Source: Erysipelothrix inopinata
Lineage (GTDB): Bacteria; Bacillota_I; Bacilli_A; Erysipelotrichales; Erysipelotrichaceae
Direction: 5' to 3'
NCBI RefSeq assembly: GCF_014396165.1
Contig: NZ_CP060715.1
Span: 150,001 to 182,000, forward strand
Length of the DNA: 32,000 nucleotides
Position numbers and translations under genes: made by a program
The notes under the pieces: model-generated
Told to the model about the DNA's origin: nothing
Seen by the model: the letters and a program-made list of their open reading frames with translations, nothing else
Databases searched by the model: none
Part shown: piece after piece, positions 1,152-11,977 of the stretch
Layout: the number at the start of each line of letters is the position of its first letter
Position numbering within the stretch: position 1 is the first letter of the stretch

Positions 1152-1984
1152 GCTGATTTTTTTTCGTTTTCATTTAATTCTACCCGCATGGTTTGGTAGG
1201 CAATATCAATACCTTCTTTTTCCAATGCTTTCTTAATACGACGGCGTAACTCCATCTCAATTTCCCACTTCTTACCAACAGCTGTTTTACAACTTACACG
1301 AACGCCATATGAGAATTCATTGTAAGAAGTAATCCCTACTACTTCTAATCGACTGTAAGTAATTCCTGGTTTTGAATAGTTTTTAAATTCATCATTTAAG
1401 ATTTCTAAGACACGATCCACATCAACTTCATACGGAATGGGAATATCAACTACGGCATTCATAAAGTCTTTCGTCTTGTTCTTAACAATCTTTATCTCAC
1501 CATTAGGAATAATGTACAGTTCCCCATCAAGACCATTTCTCAGTTTCGTAGTTCTAAAACTAATCTCTTCAACAGTTCCCGTAACATCTTCAACCGAGAT
1601 AACATCATTCACTTTGAATTGATCCTCTACAAGGATAAAGAAACCCGAAATGAGATCCTTAACAAGTTGTTGAGCACCAAACCCAATCGCGACACTCATT
1701 GCACTCGCAATTGCTAAAAATGGTGTTGTTGAGATTCCTAATATTTCTAATAAGAAACAGAAGGCAATAAAGTAAATAAGAAACTTAAAAGCATTCTTCA
1801 CAATTGGAAACAATGTTTTTTGTTTCTGATCGAGTTCTTTATTTTTAAATATTTTCTTCAACGTCTTGTTTAAGAAACGGACCAGTAGTCGCGTCACTCC
1901 AATTACTATCACAACATATAAGATTTTGAACAGTGCTGTTTGAACACCACTATTCGAGAAGAAATTAATCAGCGTTTGTTTCAT
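1148..1984 (-). CDS. Mechanosensitive ion channel family protein (MscS-like)
   Basis: N-terminal TM helices followed by an MscS-type beta domain (FKVNDVISVEDVTGTVEEISFRTTKLR..GELYIIPNG). Start moved to the second ATG (1984), which lies 6 nt after GGAGG; the first ATG abuts the SD. Confidence 0.85.
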   Translation of the reverse strand: MKQTLINFFSNSGVQTALFKILYVVIVIGVTRLLVRFLNKTLKKIFKNKELDQKQKTLFPIVKNAFKFLIYFIAFCFLLEILGISTTPFLAIASAMSVAIGFGAQQLVKDLISGFFILVEDQFKVNDVISVEDVTGTVEEISFRTTKLRNGLDGELYIIPNGEIKIVKNKTKDFMNAVVDIPIPYEVDVDRVLEILNDEFKNYSKPGITYSRLEVVGITSYNEFSYGVRVSCKTAVGKKWEIEMELRRRIKKALEKEGIDIAYQTMRVELNENEKKSA

Positions 1985-2801
1985 GATCATCCTCCGATTT
2001 TTGTTTACCCAGTAAACGTGGTTCTTCTAAGAAATTAATCAGTCTATTTTTGGCACGACGCGGCTCTTCCCCACGCATTACCAAATTAATACAATATCCC
2101 AAGAATATTACCCAAGAAATAAACCAGCCAGAAATCAACATAATCATCATCGATGCCAGCGGTCCATAAATCGTTTCATAGTTCGAATATCCATTAATAT
2201 ATACAAAGAATAAACGTCCAAGGAGCGTTAATACAACGGCTGTAACGAAAGCTCCTGGAAAGACATCTTTGAATCGCGTAAAACGAAACGATAGTAAACG
2301 ATAAAATACCGTGAAGAACAAGAGCAATAGAATTGGCATCACAAATCGCGAACTTATCGAAATATAATTGACGACAAAGCCGACTAATGTTAATCCTAGC
2401 AGCAACAACACAAAATAAGCCACGGATAGAATTCTCAGAATCATCCCACTAATATTAACTTCATCCTGTTCACTACTTAATAATAAAAAAGAATAAATAC
2501 TTTTAGAAGCAACCCAAACACTCACTCCCAGTAAAGAAATAATGAGCCAGATATTTGAGAATTGAGACGCTTGAATATACGTTACGAAGGGTTCAATAAG
2601 ATCACGCGGCACATATCGTTGTAGAAACATCACAATTTGGTTAACATCATACGCGTACGTTCCCACAAAAACTACGGCTATGATTATAAACGGAGCGACA
2701 CCCACAATTATAGAATACGCAAAGGCATACGTAAAAAGAGTCCCCTCATTAGAAGACATCATTTTATGAAGTGTTTTTGCTTTTTGAATAAAATTTTTCA
2801 T
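1965..2801 (-). CDS. YihY/BrkB (ribonuclease BN-like) family membrane protein
   Basis: 278-aa polytopic membrane protein with YihY-like organisation. Overlaps the MscS gene start. Confidence 0.7.
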   Translation of the reverse strand: MKNFIQKAKTLHKMMSSNEGTLFTYAFAYSIIVGVAPFIIIAVVFVGTYAYDVNQIVMFLQRYVPRDLIEPFVTYIQASQFSNIWLIISLLGVSVWVASKSIYSFLLLSSEQDEVNISGMILRILSVAYFVLLLLGLTLVGFVVNYISISSRFVMPILLLLFFTVFYRLLSFRFTRFKDVFPGAFVTAVVLTLLGRLFFVYINGYSNYETIYGPLASMMIMLISGWFISWVIFLGYCINLVMRGEEPRRAKNRLINFLEEPRLLGKQKSEDDHETNAD

Positions 2802-2821
2802 AGATACCTCTTTAATAATGT

Positions 2822-2849
2822 AACAAAAAGACTGGAGGTTTTCCAGTCT
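2822..2849 (-). terminator. Intrinsic terminator of the nrd operon
   Basis: Minus strand AGACUGGA-AAACC-UCCAGUCU followed by UUUUGUU. The hairpin begins within the stop codon of the redoxin gene. Confidence 0.7.
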
Positions 2850-3102
2850 AAACGTTTTTTTCTAAAAACACACTTACTTTAGAAGGTGCTGTATCTACAA
2901 GGACTTCATTTTCAGAAATAAGTACCGGGGTAGCCATAATACTGTGCTTCTGAACGAGTTCCATGAAGCGTTCAGGGTCTTCTTGACGGTGAATGACTTC
3001 AATATCTTCTTGATATTTATTTCTTAATCCCATTTCAAGATAACTCTTCAATGCAGTACATTTTGGACATTTATCTTGTGTTAACATAATTACTTTACTC
3101 AT
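2848..3102 (-). CDS. Glutaredoxin-like NrdH-type redoxin (CPKC active site)
   Basis: 84 aa, thioredoxin-fold size, CxxC near the N-terminus (LTQDKCPKCTALK). Last gene of the nrdIEF operon with a 4-nt overlap. Confidence 0.7.
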   Translation of the reverse strand: MSKVIMLTQDKCPKCTALKSYLEMGLRNKYQEDIEVIHRQEDPERFMELVQKHSIMATPVLISENEVLVDTAPSKVSVFLEKNV

Positions 3103-4172
3103 CGTTTAATCCTTGGTGCATCAAAGTAGAAATCATTATCCATTAGACTTTCTGATTTCATTTTTTGATAACCGTTTCCTTTCATCGAGAAGTTATCCAT
3201 TGTTTTTGTTTCAGTATTTAATCCATTTAAGACAACTGGGTTTACTTCCTCATATTCGAAATATGGATCGAATCCCAAGTTCATCATTGCCTTATTTGCA
3301 TTATAGCGAACAAATATTTTTACATCATGTGATAAATCAACAGGATCATAAATAAACTCAATTAACTCAACTTCTTCTTGATAGATTTCATCAAGATATG
3401 TTGTAAGCCATTCGTACAATTCCTTTTGTGTTTTTTCATCAAACTCACGATACAGTTCCATTGCCAAGTTTCCAATATACAAACCGTGAATACTTTCATC
3501 ACGAAGAATCAAGTTAATGATCTCTCCAGCTTGCATTAATTTTCCTTGGCCATAGAAGTAAAGTGGGTAATAAAATCCACTATAGAATAAGCATGATTCC
3601 AAGAATACTGAAGCAACCATTGCTTTCCATTGTGCAACATTATATTCATAATCACTCACATCACCATCAAGGCCTTGATATTGACGCTTGTAATTAAGAC
3701 GATCTAAATTCTCATAGTACCCGACAATCAATGCAAGGATATTTTGCATGTTCTTATTGTCTTGTCCCCATGCAAAGAGGTCTTCAATATCATCATTAGA
3801 CATGTATGTCATAAAGATATTTGAGTAGCTTTTCGCATGTACAGCATTTTCCATTGCTGCCATAAAGTTAAGAACTGCTTTACGTTGGTGATACTCAGGT
3901 GCAATCGAACGTGATACAACAGGCATTCCGATATCTCCTTGATAGGTATCCAAGAACGTGAGGACAACCAGGTTTTGAGCATAAGCGAGCTTAATTTCTG
4001 GAGAAAGACTTGCCCACAAGTTCAAATCCGGCTGAAGACTAATGTCTTCAGGACGCCAGAATTGACTGAGGTTTTGTTCATAAAAAGTTTGTGTAAATTT
4101 ATCTTCGTGTTCGTTCCAGTTCGCACCATCATAGCTACGATCTGAACGAGTTTTATTAATTTGATCTAACAT
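3099..4172 (-). CDS. nrdF: Class Ib ribonucleotide reductase beta subunit
   Basis: Ferritin-like R2 motifs (RDESIHG, LESCLFYSGFYYPLYF). Start set to ATG 4172 (MLDQINK...), preceded by GGGAGGAC at 4177..4184. The longer track ORF would overlap the nrdE stop. Confidence 0.9.
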   Translation of the reverse strand: MLDQINKTRSDRSYDGANWNEHEDKFTQTFYEQNLSQFWRPEDISLQPDLNLWASLSPEIKLAYAQNLVVLTFLDTYQGDIGMPVVSRSIAPEYHQRKAVLNFMAAMENAVHAKSYSNIFMTYMSNDDIEDLFAWGQDNKNMQNILALIVGYYENLDRLNYKRQYQGLDGDVSDYEYNVAQWKAMVASVFLESCLFYSGFYYPLYFYGQGKLMQAGEIINLILRDESIHGLYIGNLAMELYREFDEKTQKELYEWLTTYLDEIYQEEVELIEFIYDPVDLSHDVKIFVRYNANKAMMNLGFDPYFEYEEVNPVVLNGLNTETKTMDNFSMKGNGYQKMKSESLMDNDFYFDAPRIKR

Positions 4173-4183
4173 TTTCGTCCTCC

Positions 4184-6298
4184 CTAAACTGCACAGCTCT
4201 CGCACTCATCAATATTAAGTTTCTTTGTACGTGTATAGTACAATGTTTTAATCCCTTGATAATGTGCATATAAATAATATTTCTGTAAACTACGAGTAGT
4301 TTCATCTGAGGTAATGCACAACTCAAATGAGATACCTTGATCCACATGCTTTTGAGCTGTCGCAATAACATCAATTATTTTGTACTTGTCCATTGAGTAA
4401 GCAGATTCATACATAAACCCAGCAACATCAGATGCAGGCATTGGGAAGTATGTTTTTGAGTTACCGTAAGTACGTTCCTCAACAATTTGCTTAATAGGTG
4501 TCAATGAAGGTGTTGCACTCATGACATAAGCAATCGATCCGTTAGGAGCAACTGCAAGACGGTTTGAGTTGTATAAACCGTGTTCAATAACATCTTGTTT
4601 TAATTGTGCCCAATCTTCATCAGTTGGAATATCAATCGACTCAAACATTGTTTTGATTACATCTGTTTGTGGCAATACTTGCCCACGATCATTGAAGTAA
4701 CTCCCATCAGCATATTTTGAGCGTTCAAATCCGTAGAATTTAACGCCAGTTTCTTTCGCTTTTTCCATTGAATGAACAAGACTATGGTAATTTACAATGT
4801 TAAAGAATACATCAATTAAATCAATATCTTCAGGACTACCGTAGCTAATGAAGTTTTCTGCGATAAAACCATGGTGACCCATAATTCCAAATCCAACACT
4901 ATGCATAATGCGGTTTGCACGTGCTACTGCAGGAACATGAGAGATATTTGTTTTTTCAGAAACAGAGTTCATGATTTCCATCGCTGCAAAAACAGTTTCT
5001 TGAATCGAATTATTTTTAATCATGTTTCCCATATGACCACTTGCTAGGTTACATGAAATATCAAGACCAATTTCATCTTCCGTATGTTTATCATAGTTTG
5101 CGTAATGAGATACGATGGAAGGTTGAAGAATCTCTGTACACAAATTCGAGAATTTAATTGGGTCTGCTAGTGGATTTTCTTTATTAACATTATCAGCATA
5201 CATAATATATGGATATCCTGATTCACCTTGTAGTTGCGCAATCATATCAAAGAGTTTACGCGGATTAATTTTACGCTTACGAACTTTAGGATTGTTGACA
5301 AGAGTCTCATACCATTTATCCATATCAATTGCGATATCACTAAATGGAATACCATACTCTTGATAAACTGTATGAGGATAGAATACGTACATATCCTTAT
5401 CTTCACGAGCAAGTTCAATCATCTTATCAGGCATTACAACACCCATTGATAAAGTCTTAACACGAACATCATCATCAGCATTCAACTTCTTCGTTGATAA
5501 GAAGTCCTCAATATCTGAATGGAATACGTTAAGGTAAACAGCTCCCGCCCCTTGACGTTGACCCATTTGATCAGCATATCGGAAGGCATTATCTAAGAGT
5601 TTCGCAACTCCGACAACCCCTTTGGCTACGTTAGGAATATCTTTAATAGACTCACCCTTAGCACGAAGGTTTGTAAGGTTAATGGAAACACCACCACCCA
5701 ATTTCGAGAGTTGCATTGCAAATTCTTGAACACGTGCAATATCATTTAACGAGTCATCAACTTCAAGTAAGAAACATGACACAAATTCACCACGTTTTTT
5801 CTTACCTGTATTGAGAAGTGTTGGTGTAGCAGGTGTAAAGTCTTGAGCAATCAACGACTTAATAAGACGCTTCGCAAGCTCTACATCACCATCAGCATGA
5901 TAAAGTGCAATGATTGATAAACGATCTTCATAACGTTCAAGATAAACACGACGCGAATCATTCGATTTCATCGCATAATCATTATAAAATTTGAAGGCCC
6001 CCATATAAGTTGGGAATCTAAATTTCGCATCATAGGCAATATCGTATACTTCACGAATTTCCTCAAAATCATATTTATCTAAAAATTCAGTCTCATAGTA
6101 ACCATTTTCGGTGAGATACTCAATTTTTTCTTCCAAAGAATGAAAGAATTGGGTATTTTTATTAACGTGATTTAAGAAATATGAACGAACCGCTTCTTTG
6201 TCTTTATTTAAATCTTTGATGTTTCCATCACCATCAAGAATTTGGTTGTTCAGGATAACCCATTCAGGGATTTGATTACTCTTATTTTGTACTGTCAT
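4184..6298 (-). CDS. nrdE: Class Ib ribonucleotide reductase alpha subunit
   Basis: 704 aa with NrdE hallmarks (FLNHVN.NT, SCFLL, NLCTEI, C-terminal ECESCAV). Confidence 0.95.
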   Translation of the reverse strand: MTVQNKSNQIPEWVILNNQILDGDGNIKDLNKDKEAVRSYFLNHVNKNTQFFHSLEEKIEYLTENGYYETEFLDKYDFEEIREVYDIAYDAKFRFPTYMGAFKFYNDYAMKSNDSRRVYLERYEDRLSIIALYHADGDVELAKRLIKSLIAQDFTPATPTLLNTGKKKRGEFVSCFLLEVDDSLNDIARVQEFAMQLSKLGGGVSINLTNLRAKGESIKDIPNVAKGVVGVAKLLDNAFRYADQMGQRQGAGAVYLNVFHSDIEDFLSTKKLNADDDVRVKTLSMGVVMPDKMIELAREDKDMYVFYPHTVYQEYGIPFSDIAIDMDKWYETLVNNPKVRKRKINPRKLFDMIAQLQGESGYPYIMYADNVNKENPLADPIKFSNLCTEILQPSIVSHYANYDKHTEDEIGLDISCNLASGHMGNMIKNNSIQETVFAAMEIMNSVSEKTNISHVPAVARANRIMHSVGFGIMGHHGFIAENFISYGSPEDIDLIDVFFNIVNYHSLVHSMEKAKETGVKFYGFERSKYADGSYFNDRGQVLPQTDVIKTMFESIDIPTDEDWAQLKQDVIEHGLYNSNRLAVAPNGSIAYVMSATPSLTPIKQIVEERTYGNSKTYFPMPASDVAGFMYESAYSMDKYKIIDVIATAQKHVDQGISFELCITSDETTRSLQKYYLYAHYQGIKTLYYTRTKKLNIDECESCAV

Positions 6299-9228: not shown

Positions 9229-9259
9229 TAAAAAAAACTCACTGACCTGAATCAGTGAG
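9229..9259 (-). terminator. Intrinsic terminator of tRNA cassette copy 1
   Basis: Minus strand CUCACUGA-UUCAGG-UCAGUGAG followed by UUUUUUUU. Confidence 0.8.
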
Positions 9260-9272
9260 ATAATTTATATAA

Positions 9273-9348
9273 TGGTGACCCGTACGGGATTCGAACCCGT
9301 GAATGCATGCGTGAAAGGCATGTGAGTTAACCGTTTCTCCAACGGGCC
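9273..9348 (-). tRNA. tRNA-Glu(UUC), copy 1
   Basis: Reverse complement GGCCCGTTGGAGAAACGGTTAACTCACATGCCTTTCACGCATGCATTCACGGGTTCGAATCCCGTACGGGTCACCA. Folds as a cloverleaf by hand; anticodon loop CUUUCAC; 76 nt with encoded CCA. Confidence 0.95.
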
Positions 9349-9353
9349 ACATA

Positions 9354-9429
9354 TGGCGCTTGATGTAGGATTCGAACCTACGACCCACTGGTTAACAGCC
9401 AGTTGCTCTACCTGCTGAGCTAATCAAGC
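9354..9429 (-). tRNA. tRNA-Asn(GUU), copy 1
   Basis: Reverse complement GCTTGATTAGCTCAGCAGGTAGAGCAACTGGCTGTTAACCAGTGGGTCGTAGGTTCGAATCCTACATCAAGCGCCA. Anticodon loop CUGUUAA; 76 nt with CCA. Confidence 0.95.
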
Positions 9430-9446
9430 AAATCAAGTGCTTATAA

Positions 9447-9545: not shown

Positions 9546-10238
9546 CTAGAAATCTCTCAATGAACGGCGTTGATTTCCTTCACTATCAAAGTTTGATTCA
9601 TCAAGCCATCGTACAAAACGTGTTTTTTTGAATGGCCACTCGGAATCAATAATTGAAAACCATGCCGTGTCTCTACTTCTATTCTTATAGATGAGTGCAT
9701 TTCTAAATGTTCCCTCATAACTAAAGCCATAACGTAAAGCTGCACGATAAGATGGTTCGTTCAAAGTATCGCATTTCCATTCTAATCTACGGTAAGATAA
9801 ATCCTCAAACACATATCGTGCCAAAAGATAGACAACCTCCGTTGCCATTACCGTCTTTTGAAGTTTGGGTGAATACACTACATATCCAATTTCTATCGAA
9901 CCATTATCAGGATCAATCCGCATCAATGCAATACTTCCTACAACTTCATTATTCTCATTATTTATAATGGCGAAAAAACATGACTTAAACTGTTCTTCGA
10001 TATTCTTAAAGTAAGCATCAAAGCTATCTCTATCTTGAAAAGGATCAATACCCATATATGTCCAGTTTTCTAACGGCGCTGTCGGCCCAAAGACCTCATA
10101 GAGACCATCAGCGTGTTTATTTAGATTAAGTCGTTCTAAACGACATGTACGCCCCTCTAACAACGTTACATCTGGATACTTAAAGGAAATACCTGCTTCG
10201 ATACTCGGTCCGATTGGTTGATTGAATTGATTCATCAT
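9546..10238 (-). CDS. GNAT family N-acetyltransferase (RimJ/RimL-like, Acetyltransf_3-type)
   Basis: GSIALMRIDPDNGSIEIGYVVYSPKLQKT..ATE..YLL..YVFE.L.YRRLEWKCD..N..S..AA.R.GF..EGTFR. Start moved to ATG 10238, 6 nt after GGAG (10248..10245); the track start at 10250 overlaps that SD. Confidence 0.8.
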   Translation of the reverse strand: MMNQFNQPIGPSIEAGISFKYPDVTLLEGRTCRLERLNLNKHADGLYEVFGPTAPLENWTYMGIDPFQDRDSFDAYFKNIEEQFKSCFFAIINNENNEVVGSIALMRIDPDNGSIEIGYVVYSPKLQKTVMATEVVYLLARYVFEDLSYRRLEWKCDTLNEPSYRAALRYGFSYEGTFRNALIYKNRSRDTAWFSIIDSEWPFKKTRFVRWLDESNFDSEGNQRRSLRDF

Positions 10239-10239
10239 T

Positions 10240-10276
10240 TTACACTCCATATCTTTGTTGTATTATAGCATATACT
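10240..10276 (-). repeat. 37-nt perfect direct repeat, copy 1 (extended -10 promoter + leader + RBS of the GNAT gene)
   Basis: ttacactccatatctttgttgtattatagcatatact is identical to 11700..11736. On the minus strand it contains TGCTATAAT (10270..10262) and GGAG (10248..10245). Confidence 0.9.
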
Positions 10277-10372: not shown

Positions 10373-10396
10373 AAATAAAAGACCTCTAATGAGGTC
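10373..10396 (-). terminator. Intrinsic terminator after the 178-aa ORF
   Basis: Minus strand GACCUC-AUUA-GAGGUC followed by UUUUAUUU, beginning 7 nt after the stop at 10404. Confidence 0.65.
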
Positions 10397-10403
10397 CTGT
10401 TGC

Positions 10404-10940
10404 TTAGATTTTATTACGTTTTGGTATGAATCTTTTATAAATTGTATCATTAACATATTTTCCATGTACAAAAGTTCTCGGATCATTGATAGTAGAATTC
10501 CCTACATAGTAGCCTGTGATATCGCAAACTAAAAAATAATATGAAGTTTTACCATCACTTCTGGATCTAATTACATAATCAGCATCGATATTCGACCATT
10601 CCGGTCGCCTGTACTTATAGATTTCAGTCATTCTATTTAGTGTATTTTGAAAATTAGCAATATTTTCTATTCTTGATTCTATTTCACAATAGTGTGAACT
10701 ACGAGTAACTATGTTCCTTAGTTTTTCATCCTTGATTAATTTATTGAACACATTTTGTGGCGAACCTCTCAATAAACCTTTAATATCCGTAAGGTAGTGT
10801 AATCCAGCAAGATGATAGAATTGTTTTTTCTCAAAATTAATTTCAATTCTTTTAGTCTCATTTTTACCCTTAACTTGGAATTCGACAGCGAATGTATGAT
10901 CGCATAACTGCTTAAAAACTTCTAGAGCTTCATCAAGCAT
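10404..10940 (-). CDS. Hypothetical 178-aa protein, tentatively a PBECR-type (Barnase/EndoU/colicin E5-D/RelE-like) phage-associated nuclease or RNase toxin
   Basis: Intact ORF with GGAGGGG 6 nt before the ATG. No TM segment or signal peptide. The blocks FYHLAGLHYLTD and DADYVIRS..GKTSYYFLV resemble, from memory, Firmicutes mobile-element proteins annotated as PBECR nucleases. Coding confidence is good; functional assignment is unverified. Confidence 0.6.
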   Translation of the reverse strand: MLDEALEVFKQLCDHTFAVEFQVKGKNETKRIEINFEKKQFYHLAGLHYLTDIKGLLRGSPQNVFNKLIKDEKLRNIVTRSSHYCEIESRIENIANFQNTLNRMTEIYKYRRPEWSNIDADYVIRSRSDGKTSYYFLVCDITGYYVGNSTINDPRTFVHGKYVNDTIYKRFIPKRNKI

Positions 10941-10955
10941 TATTCCCCTCCACTT

Positions 10956-10982
10956 AATAAATAAAGGCTCTTACGAGCCTTT
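10956..10982 (-). terminator. Intrinsic terminator/attenuator immediately upstream of the 178-aa ORF
   Basis: Minus strand AAAGGCUC-GUAA-GAGCCUUU (10982..10963) followed by AUUUAUU. The SD of the ORF starts about 5 nt later. Confidence 0.75.
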
Positions 10983-11186
10983 ATTTGAAATAATATAGTA
11001 ATGGTATTCTATTCAGCTGACAAGGCCTACATCGACTGCGGTCAACCATAAAACCGCTGCTAAAGCTGGATGAATCACCTGTCGATAAGGATCATCACAT
11101 TAGCTTCAGGAAGTGTTTTATCACTACCTGTTAAAGGAGGTCAAAATATAGGCAAAACTTAGTCAAAGTTTTGTTTCATTTACCTC
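10956..11186 (-). ncRNA. Candidate about 230-nt structured non-coding RNA or leader (promoter to terminator)
   Basis: Bounded by a near-consensus promoter and an intrinsic terminator. No ORF of 60 aa or more on either strand, and the longest ATG frame I found is 22 codons with no SD. Noticeably more G+C-rich than the flanking spacers. Several hand-found helices are listed in the findings. Confidence 0.5.
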
Positions 11187-11192
11187 GCCCCC

Positions 11193-11221
11193 ATATTAAC
11201 ATGATATTTTTACTCAGTCAA
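11193..11221 (-). promoter_or_regulatory. Sigma-A-type promoter driving the candidate RNA and the nuclease-like ORF
   Basis: Minus strand TTGACT (11221..11216), 17-nt spacer, TAATAT (11198..11193) preceded by TGT (extended -10-like). Confidence 0.7.
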
Positions 11222-11357: not shown

Positions 11358-11382
11358 TGGTAACCCGTACGGGAATCGAACT
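11358..11382 (-). other. Truncated tRNA-Glu 3' end (T-arm half + acceptor + CCA), att-like remnant
   Basis: Minus strand CAGTTCGATTCCCGTACGGGTTACCA versus tRNA-Glu GGTTCGAATCCCGTACGGGTCACCA (2 mismatches over the last 23 nt). No 5' part of a tRNA precedes it. Confidence 0.7.
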
Positions 11383-11477: not shown

Positions 11478-11696
11478 CTAGATATTAACATCTCTCAGAA
11501 GATCCACATAATTTATACCATATACATTGCATAATTCTACCAAAGTATCGATCGAAATAGAGACTTTTCCTTGTTCATATGCATGAATCGCTGATTTAGA
11601 TTTTCCAACCATTAATCTTACTTCACTAAGGGAGTAACCATTCAGATTTCTAAAATGTTTTAACTTCACTCCCAATTTCCTATTAATGACACTCAT
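11478..11696 (-). CDS. XRE-family helix-turn-helix transcriptional regulator (72 aa)
   Basis: LKHFRNLNGYSLSEVRLMVGKSKSAIHAYEQGKVSISIDTLVELCNVYG is a canonical HTH_3 pattern. GGAG lies 8 nt before the ATG. Confidence 0.8.
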   Translation of the reverse strand: MSVINRKLGVKLKHFRNLNGYSLSEVRLMVGKSKSAIHAYEQGKVSISIDTLVELCNVYGINYVDLLRDVNI

Positions 11697-11699
11697 ATC

Positions 11700-11736
11700 T
11701 TACACTCCATATCTTTGTTGTATTATAGCATATACT
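11700..11736 (-). repeat. 37-nt perfect direct repeat, copy 2 (extended -10 promoter + leader + RBS of the HTH gene)
   Basis: Identical to 10240..10276. TGCTATAAT at 11730..11722 and GGAG at 11708..11705 on the minus strand. Confidence 0.9.
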
Positions 11737-11761: not shown

Positions 11762-11789
11762 TAAAAAACTCATTGAATGAATCAATGAG
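11762..11789 (-). terminator. Intrinsic terminator of tRNA cassette copy 2
   Basis: Minus strand CUCAUUGA-UUCAU-UCAAUGAG followed by UUUUUU. Confidence 0.75.
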
Positions 11790-11802
11790 ATAATTTAATA
11801 TA

Positions 11803-11878
11803 TGGTGACCCGTACGGGATTCGAACCCGTGAATGCATGCGTGAAAGGCATGTGAGTTAACCGTTTCTCCAACGGGCC
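11803..11878 (-). tRNA. tRNA-Glu(UUC), copy 2
   Basis: Identical in all 76 nt to 9273..9348. Confidence 0.95.
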
Positions 11879-11883
11879 ATACA

Positions 11884-11959
11884 TGGCGCTTGATGTAGGA
11901 TTCGAACCTACGACCCACTGGTTAACAGCCAGTTGCTCTACCTGCTGAGCTAATCAAGC
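11884..11959 (-). tRNA. tRNA-Asn(GUU), copy 2
   Basis: Identical in all 76 nt to 9354..9429. Confidence 0.95.
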
Positions 11960-11977
11960 ACGACTTAGTGCCTATAA

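Follow-up and report, generated by a model that had tools for sequence, protein, structure and literature searches.

Ahead of a gene of the PBECR4 family in Erysipelothrix inopinata lies an RNA of about 230 nucleotides (nt) that, to judge from its sequence and predicted helices, is a divergent, 5′-extended member of the drum family (RF02958) and not a new family. Both are encoded on the minus strand of a 32,000-nt stretch of the chromosome, here called the window, whose numbering is used for all positions. The same layout, with a drum RNA and its terminator directly upstream of the PBECR4 gene, is conserved in almost all of this PBECR4 clade, on chromosomes, in prophages and on conjugative plasmids of Enterococcus. 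The PBECR4 protein is a predicted metal-independent endoribonuclease (endoRNase), and by analogy with known systems we give about an even chance to the reading that the locus is a type III-like pair of RNA antitoxin and RNase toxin on a small tRNA-associated islet. The drum RNA family and the PBECR4 protein family are each already published, the window copy being a sub-threshold, 5′-extended variant of the former. On this point the initial annotation of this DNA, which was made from the sequence and took the RNA to be new and unique, has to be corrected.

The window RNA and its PBECR4 gene

The promoter, the structured RNA free of open reading frames (ORFs), the terminator, the ribosome-binding site and the ORF were all found where the initial annotation had placed them. 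A sigma-70-type promoter at 11193..11221, with TTGACT as the −35 box (11221..11216), a 17-nt spacer and the −10 box TAATAT (11198..11193) in the context TG-n-TAATAT, would start transcription near 11186-11192. A consensus scan rates this promoter at 9/12 plus the TG, a score that taken alone is at chance level (17 sites found against 17 expected). Between 11192 and 10941 there is no minus-strand ORF of at least 30 amino acids (aa), and the G+C content of the RNA stretch amounts to 0.35-0.45 as compared to 0.19-0.25 in the spacers on either side, which bears out the earlier impression that it is richer in G+C. For the 243-nt RNA, the computed folding energy is −73 kcal/mol (z = −4.5), and none of 200 shuffled sequences folded as well.

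At the gathering threshold, Rfam has no match in the RNA region, such that the search by which the initial annotation would have identified the RNA gave a lead only when run permissively, namely drum at 11106..10997 with 21.5 bits (E 0.098). This is below the gathering score of 43 bits, whereas 50-102 bits are reached by the relatives that precede homologous genes. The lead was confirmed because of its synteny with the drums that lie upstream of PBECR4 relatives. A covariance model of drum plus terminator, R1, was built from 19 independent drums with the window left out, and its best match in the whole window is at 11111..10948 (19.5 bits, E 0.0015). Aligned with 22 bona fide drums, the window RNA retains the GGUU, ACC.CA and GAA.A.AA blocks as well as the terminator.

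The helices of the drum core (10997..11106) were read directly from the window sequence, since a model-based alignment (A5) put its 3′ domain in an insert and was not counted. P1 pairs AGCU with AGCU (11105..11102 with 11067..11064), and P2 consists of GAUGA/UCAUC (11096..11092 with 11073..11069) followed by CCU/AGG (11090..11088 with 11080..11078). The loop of P2 forms a pseudoknot with the segment past ACC.CA, pairing UCGAC (11085..11081) with GUCGA (11036..11032). The conserved GGUU...ACC.CA block is found at 11055..11037, where the window has GGUU and ACCGCA. P3 has an outer part, AUGGU at 11049..11045 with ACCAU at 11005..11001, and an inner part, GGC at 11027..11025 with GCU at 11017..11015, and its A-rich strand, GAAUAGAAUA (11014..11005), replaces the GAAAGAAAA of drum. 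Across the family, covariation argues strongly for this architecture. In the 19 independent drums, 91.2% of the cells in helices and terminator are paired, compared with 71.0% in shuffles, and both sides change in 30 of the 32 pairs, which none of 500 shuffles matched (slid controls, 33-47%). All five pairs of the pseudoknot vary on both sides, with 92% of cells paired, and all ten terminator pairs in R1 covary.

Directly 3′ of the drum motif, the window carries a Rho-independent terminator (10986..10953). Its core stem, AAAGGCUC-GUAA-GAGCCUUU at 10982..10963, extends to 12 bp (10986..10959) and is followed by the tail AUUUAUU, the interrupted U-tail as a whole being AUUUAUUAAG (10962..10953). 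It was missing from the output of a simple terminator scan, probably because part of the interrupted U-run is taken up by the extended stem, but R1 aligns it with the terminator of the homologues. The Shine-Dalgarno sequence GGAGGGG (10945..10951) lies 4 nt ahead of the ATG, and since the PBECR4 gene begins only about 20 nt past the terminator stem, it would be transcribed essentially only by read-through. The earlier claim that there is no room for a separate promoter needs a qualification, as a weak promoter-like match, TTGTCA-17-TACTAT (11023..10995, minus strand), lies within the 3′ part of the drum core. Its −35 box coincides with the P3 inner loop CUUGUCA, its score is at chance level, and it is not conserved beyond the subfamily described below; the claim stands insofar as a transcript from this site must still cross the terminator.

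We also considered a pairing between the A-rich strand (11005-11014) and the U-tail of the terminator (10953-10962). In the window, GAAUAGAAUA faces UUUAUUUAUU with U:A compensations, and two relatives show C:G compensations, with AAAACAAAA facing GUUUGUUUG in L104 and GAACGAAAA facing UUUUGUUU in L009. Native combinations beat swapped ones weakly (p ~0.014, among related sequences), and this pairing is suggestive but too weak to be claimed.

The promoter of the window lies about 85 nt further upstream than in most drum loci, and the extra segment folds into two hairpins, E1 and E2. E1 (11137..11186), which is outside the Rfam drum model, has an outer stem of GAGGU (11186..11182) and ACCUC (11141..11137) and an inner hairpin at 11173..11153 with the loop UUGACUA. 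E2 (11107..11130) reads CAGGUAGUG-AUAAAA-CACUUCCUG. E1 recurs with different sequences in L104, L005, L106, L108, L109, L110 and L111, the same loci that share the P3 inner loop CUUGUCA with the window, and a hairpin at the E2 position is found in 8/8 RNAs of this subfamily, with unrelated stem sequences. Since the hairpins and the loop are common to the closest protein relatives (the L104 protein is 45% identical to that of the window), the RNA variant tracks the protein subclade. R1 misses L104 entirely even though its RNA is visibly homologous to that of the window, and this branch has therefore drifted far from the drum consensus. An anti-Shine-Dalgarno role of ACCUC and the next bases (ACCUCCUUU, 11141..11133) was considered and not adopted; the segment is partly conserved in relatives and is already paired inside E1. 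Canonical drums (L118, L114, L134 and L188) carry a short 5′ hairpin with the loop ACUUGAG or a variant of it within the roughly 25 nt ahead of P1, likewise outside the Rfam model, and judging from the loop sequences, UUGACUA of the E1 inner hairpin may be related to it.

The ORF downstream of the terminator (10404..10940; H9L01_00800, WP_187534064, an exact NCBI match) encodes a protein of 178 aa, and the initial guess of a PBECR-type nuclease proved right: residues 4-153 match Pfam PBECR4 (PF18813) at E 1.4e-19, with 71.6 bits where the cutoff is 27. PBECR4 is the only significant Pfam family, which agrees with the earlier statement that the ORF does not look like ToxN, and the scan gave no match to DUF3800. 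An exhaustive HMMER search yielded 359 cluster representatives at E <= 1e-3, while a word-indexed protein search found a single relative (99%). In an alignment of 30 relatives, F36, H43, G46 and R90 are invariant and D52, S81 and S149 nearly so (S149 in at least 90%). The AlphaFold2 model (mean confidence score, pLDDT, 96.5) places H43 in a helix (38-45) and S149 in a strand (145-152). A histidine from the region of the N-terminal helix together with a C-terminal serine or threonine is the active-site pattern in five of the six PBECR families (PMC5512222), and the positions of H43 and S149 in sequence and model fit this pattern, so that the His and Ser expected of active domains are conserved. 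A structure search also returned one viral protein at E 3.6e-5, and a sequence search of the PDB with the 178-aa protein gave no match.

The drum-PBECR4 pairing in bacteria and phages

To see how general this layout is, we sampled 38 loci from species-representative genomes, 59 from metagenomes and 2 from viruses, together with contigs of individual relatives. Rfam drum was found at gathering score (50-91 bits) directly upstream and on the same strand in 26/38 genome loci, and R1 detected a full-length drum with terminator at this place in 91/100 loci; with filters off, R1 gave weaker matches at the expected place in most of the remaining ones. When the proteins from genomes, metagenomes and Enterococcus plasmids were clustered at 90% identity, 52 of the 57 clusters had a clear R1 match, such that the conserved non-coding block, on whose presence upstream of homologues the initial annotation had made its module depend, is indeed there. 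The paired proteins are very divergent and still form 17 clusters at 40% identity. The geometry is narrow, with typically 41-62 nt between the end of drum and the start codon (56 nt in the window), and most loci have a near-perfect sigma-70 promoter, often 12/12 (TTGACA-17-TATAAT), that ends 24-31 nt ahead of the R1 start. The linker from drum to terminator varies in length and sequence.

Among protein-coding neighbors, none is conserved across diverse loci; recurrences were confined to redundant copies of the same contigs. The RNA is therefore the only candidate partner of PBECR4, and the XRE regulator gene near the module in the window, which the initial annotation had highlighted as its neighbor, is incidental and no conserved part of it.

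A small PBECR4 clade from uncultured Bacilli carries, in the position of drum, an RNA of other appearance that is conserved, structured and followed by a terminator (L037 2830-2990, L040 390-535, L041 1710-1860). R1 gives nothing or 13 bits here, and from its sequence this RNA could either have taken the place of drum as the partner or be a drum that has diverged strongly. In a Lachnospiraceae metagenome-assembled genome (L017), two complete units of drum and terminator stand in tandem (2517-2681 and 2759-2922) before one PBECR4 gene.

PBECR4 genes were found on 11 Enterococcus plasmids. On the Enterococcus faecium plasmid pT17-1-optrA-57k (L114), the gene (OKL57_RS12965) is preceded by a drum (Rfam, 51.8 bits; R1, 70 bits), and the pair directly follows a trio of genes for a TIR-domain protein, a DUF6414 protein and an AAA-ATPase (1441-4582), a defense-like neighborhood. 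A plasmid PBECR4 gene was found upregulated on colonic epithelium in an E. faecium transcriptome (PMC11134301). Other PBECR4 loci adjoin integrases, phage lysin or reverse transcriptase.

A different picture emerges when one starts from the RNA. Two sequence patterns of drum served to screen the phage contigs of IMG/VR, and R1 and Rfam confirmed the candidates; since these patterns select only part of the drum family, the following proportions are indicative only. The search gave 47 drums, 36 of them non-duplicate, and an intact PBECR4 ORF lies directly downstream of only 5/36. One further drum (L118, 4314-4468) is followed within about 100 nt by a truncated PBECR4 N-terminus of 33 aa and thus belongs to a decayed module. 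In L184 (drum at 5470-5629, minus strand), where a transposase gene of the IS200/IS605 type lies just downstream of the drum, the module is likewise decayed. Fourteen of the 36, on 13 contigs, are embedded in phage tRNA gene arrays and share the strand of the tRNAs (L188 5428-6315; L134 1441-2749; L245 9598-11897, with two drums; L285, L297, L301, L273, L294, L296, L264, L267, L295 and L299). They score 62-94 bits with Rfam, and their contigs measure 90-216 kb where known; those inspected for it (L134 and L188) have no evident terminator. The remaining 16 are orphans, several of them near a contig end; where inspected, they end in a terminator of their own, and what comes next is either unrelated genes or no gene. 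Drum thus also exists as a stand-alone RNA and would act in trans. The GenBank phage collection contained no match either to phage drum or to the 178-aa protein.

The tRNA regions of these phages harbor further structured RNAs: skipping-rope RNAs (L245 6524-6616, minus strand; L285 6142-6233, plus strand), a ROOL RNA with 315 bits (L267 9002-9570, plus strand) and a group I intron (L297 3360-3610, plus strand).

Antitoxin or another role for drum

If the locus is a pair of RNA antitoxin and RNase toxin, the promoter would drive an RNA of about 230 nt composed of two 5′ hairpins, the pseudoknotted drum core and the intrinsic terminator, and the terminator would keep this RNA in large excess over the protein. 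Drum would bind and neutralize the PBECR4 RNase, as ToxI does with ToxN and RCd22 with AbiF. A stop of transcription, or loss or titration of the RNA upon phage infection or plasmid loss, would free the more stable RNase, which could then cleave cellular RNA, possibly tRNA; the placement of phage drums in tRNA arrays is a weak hint at this target. Growth arrest, abortive infection or plasmid addiction would be the outcome, and the orphan drums of phages would be antitoxin mimics. The comparative data support such a type III-like reading, and the role is plausible by analogy with ToxIN and RCd22-AbiF.

Several points weigh against it. Toxicity, RNA-protein binding, RNA processing and phage defense are inferred by analogy. 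The window RNA is below the Rfam drum threshold, its U-tract is interrupted, which makes the efficiency of the terminator a prediction, and the promoter-like site within the core would count weakly in the same direction. Tandem Repeats Finder detected only an 11-nt × 2.5 array (score 35), so that the RNA is a single unit without the repeats of type III antitoxins, as the initial annotation had already noted. PBECR4 is unrelated to ToxN, AbiQ, CptN and TenpN, and PADLOC had no model matching the 178-aa protein. The top matches of a PDB structure search were CdiA-CT toxins, but with an E value of 0.028 and a probability of 0.41 they are non-significant and leave the BECR fold without independent confirmation. 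Lastly, the gene always lies downstream on the same strand in our sample, while the drum paper allows either orientation and either side (PMC5737381).

Some of the evidence would fit equally well if drum were a required subunit of PBECR4, for instance a scaffold, guide or specificity element, such that the complex is the active enzyme and phage orphans reprogram or hijack it. This applies to the obligate pairing, the RNA excess enforced by the terminator, the co-variation of RNA and protein and the lack of a protein partner. In the same vein, according to Weinberg et al., the conservation of drum suggested “a biochemically challenging task” (PMC5737381). We nonetheless consider this unlikely, because the BECR RNases characterized so far are not known to depend on RNA cofactors (PMC5512222), because phage drums lacking a PBECR4 gene are easier to understand as decoys than as cofactors, and because each tested case of the layout (ToxIN, RCd22-AbiF) is inhibitory. 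Alternatively, drum might solely gate read-through into the PBECR4 gene, as a riboswitch-like or protein-responsive attenuator; a cis-acting sensor leader of this kind had been offered by the initial annotation as its alternative. Drums of host loci are always in the 5′ leader of the gene with the terminator in between, and a pairing of the P3 inner strand UAGGCCUU with the terminator arm AAGGCU is conceivable in the subfamily of the window (6 bp, by eye). This reading is disfavored by the orphan and tRNA-array drums that have no PBECR4 gene downstream, the former as stand-alone genes with a terminator of their own, since a riboswitch or attenuator would be expected only in 5′ leaders. It also fits poorly with the variable linker between drum and terminator and with the two complete tandem units of L017, and the discoverers thought drum an improbable riboswitch (PMC5737381); altogether, we hold a purely cis-acting role to be improbable.

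One could also regard drum and PBECR4 as two independent genes that merely share a cassette and a promoter, drum being a trans-acting small RNA with its own cellular or phage role, e.g., in tRNA biology. Most drums of the phage search, which have no adjacent PBECR4 gene and are co-located with tRNAs, skipping-rope and ROOL RNAs, would suit this idea. Seen from the protein, however, the pairing is nearly universal across the 17 clusters at 40% identity, its geometry is fixed, and the form of the RNA follows the protein subclade, which together make the absence of a functional link very unlikely. Finally, the window might have no functional RNA at all but a decayed remnant, an ordinary long 5′ untranslated region or a dead copy of drum, as might be read from its low scores against both drum models, the interrupted U-tract and the A-rich strand that departs from the consensus. 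We find this hardly credible, given that all helices including the pseudoknot are intact and the fold is unusually stable (the z of −4.5 given above), that the closest relatives, L104 and L005, share these departures or compensate for them, that near-identical copies occur in several independent sequencing runs, and that the ORF is intact with conserved catalytic residues. An origin of the 230 nt from a decayed protein-coding gene was rejected on account of the covarying structure and the lack of an ORF.

Drum was flagged in 2017 as a highly conserved and likely biochemically sophisticated RNA, and it is now tied almost one-to-one, from the protein side, to a family of predicted RNases. Its function thereby becomes a testable hypothesis, in which drum would be the antitoxin, PBECR4 the RNase toxin and the phage copy a decoy; the system is present both in gut bacteria and on resistance plasmids of Enterococcus. 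For annotation, this means that sub-threshold drum variants can be recovered through their synteny with PBECR4. Should the antitoxin reading, with phage drums as decoys, be true, it would give a function to an RNA that has been an orphan since 2017 and would suggest that phage “tRNA islands” are islands of anti-defense RNA.

The islet and the relation to known systems

Read along the minus strand, the module is embedded in a region that begins with a tRNA-Asn/tRNA-Glu pair (11959..11803), a terminator, a 40-nt leader, the 72-aa XRE/HTH_3 regulator gene (11478..11696) and 24 nt copied from the 3′ end of tRNA-Glu (92%; 11358..11381), which form an att-like scar shortly before the RNA promoter; the regulator gene and the scar are context and outside the conserved module. 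The promoter, the ORF-free stretch of about 230 nt, the terminator hairpin, GGAGGGG and the 178-aa ORF then follow, and a terminator hairpin after the PBECR4 stop codon (10379..10398, from the terminator scan) closes the module. Beyond it, the 40-nt leader recurs ahead of a GNAT acetyltransferase gene and a second tRNA-Asn/tRNA-Glu pair (9429..9273), so that the description of a tRNA-flanked islet was accurate. The duplicated tRNA pair spans 183 nt at 96% (9248-9430 and 11778-11960), and the leader, which contains promoter and ribosome-binding site, is repeated at 98% (10237-10276 and 11697-11736), with the XRE and GNAT genes each beginning directly after one copy. The two leader copies enclose the 1460-bp block of XRE, drum and PBECR4, which resembles an insertion, or a duplication-mediated islet, located at a tRNA site. 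Elsewhere in the window, a tetrahydrofolate (THF) riboswitch aptamer (RF01831) is found at 502-593 on the minus strand (68.5 bits against a gathering score of 36). The GatB, PepF and XRE proteins encoded in the window, like the 178-aa protein, have exact matches in E. inopinata.

In the drum paper (Weinberg et al. 2017, PMC5737381), a 3′ terminator is already described and the association with a protein gene in the vicinity is called compelling, while the function is left open; that PBECR4 is the protein meant there could not be confirmed. The window RNA shares with RF02958 P1, the P2 hairpin, the GGUU...ACC.CA block, P3 with its A-rich strand, the 3′ Rho-independent terminator and the adjacent protein gene. 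It differs in its score (21.5 versus 43 bits) and in the two-hairpin 5′ extension of about 85 nt, which neither the model nor the majority of drums has. The protein, in turn, is a clear Pfam member of PBECR4 (Iyer et al. 2017, PMC5512222), and its H43 and S149 match the active-site pattern. That family was described as polyvalent proteins of phages and conjugative elements and as solo phage proteins with an offensive RNase role, and no RNA partner was mentioned (PMC5512222). The literature we searched contained no function for drum and no paper that links drum to PBECR4 or proposes an antitoxin role. We put forward tentatively, and at somewhat less than an even chance, that drum and PBECR4 form an unrecognized class of RNA-protein toxin-antitoxin (TA) or abortive-infection systems, in which a single pseudoknotted RNA, without a repeat array, would neutralize a BECR-fold RNase, possibly a tRNase, and which large phages would counter with orphan drum decoys in their tRNA arrays, beside skipping-rope and ROOL RNAs.

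The DUF3800-I to -XI and skipping-rope motifs (Weinberg et al. 2017) resemble drum in being structured RNAs with 3′ terminators and one associated protein family, but they have other folds and other partner proteins. Skipping-rope RNAs moreover occur in the same phage tRNA arrays as drum.

Type III TA systems (ToxIN, AbiQ, CptIN, TenpIN) are close to the drum-PBECR4 locus in their order of promoter, non-coding RNA, Rho-independent terminator and endoRNase gene, in having no protein antitoxin, in their occurrence on plasmids and in prophages, and in a pseudoknotted RNA, which here would be in excess over the protein. A type III antitoxin consists of tandem repeats of 34-50 nt, in contrast to the single RNA of about 110-230 nt found here, and the protein belongs to the BECR family and is not ToxN-like. 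The type III-TA-like module of the initial annotation is thus upheld in its layout and by the comparative data, but it is not a strict type III TA system, because there are no tandem repeats and no ToxN-family toxin. A phage-encoded RNA antitoxin mimic is reportedly found in the pseudo-ToxI of phage phiTE, to which the orphan drums of phages would be analogous.

An RNA of the same 2017 screen offers a further parallel. [quoted passage not shown] Like drum, it lies upstream of its gene with a terminator in between, and it is not cut into repeats (PMC12373285). It differs in that it is made of two short hairpin motifs, in that its toxin is Abi_2/HEPN-like, and in that neither RNA nor protein is related in sequence to drum or PBECR4.

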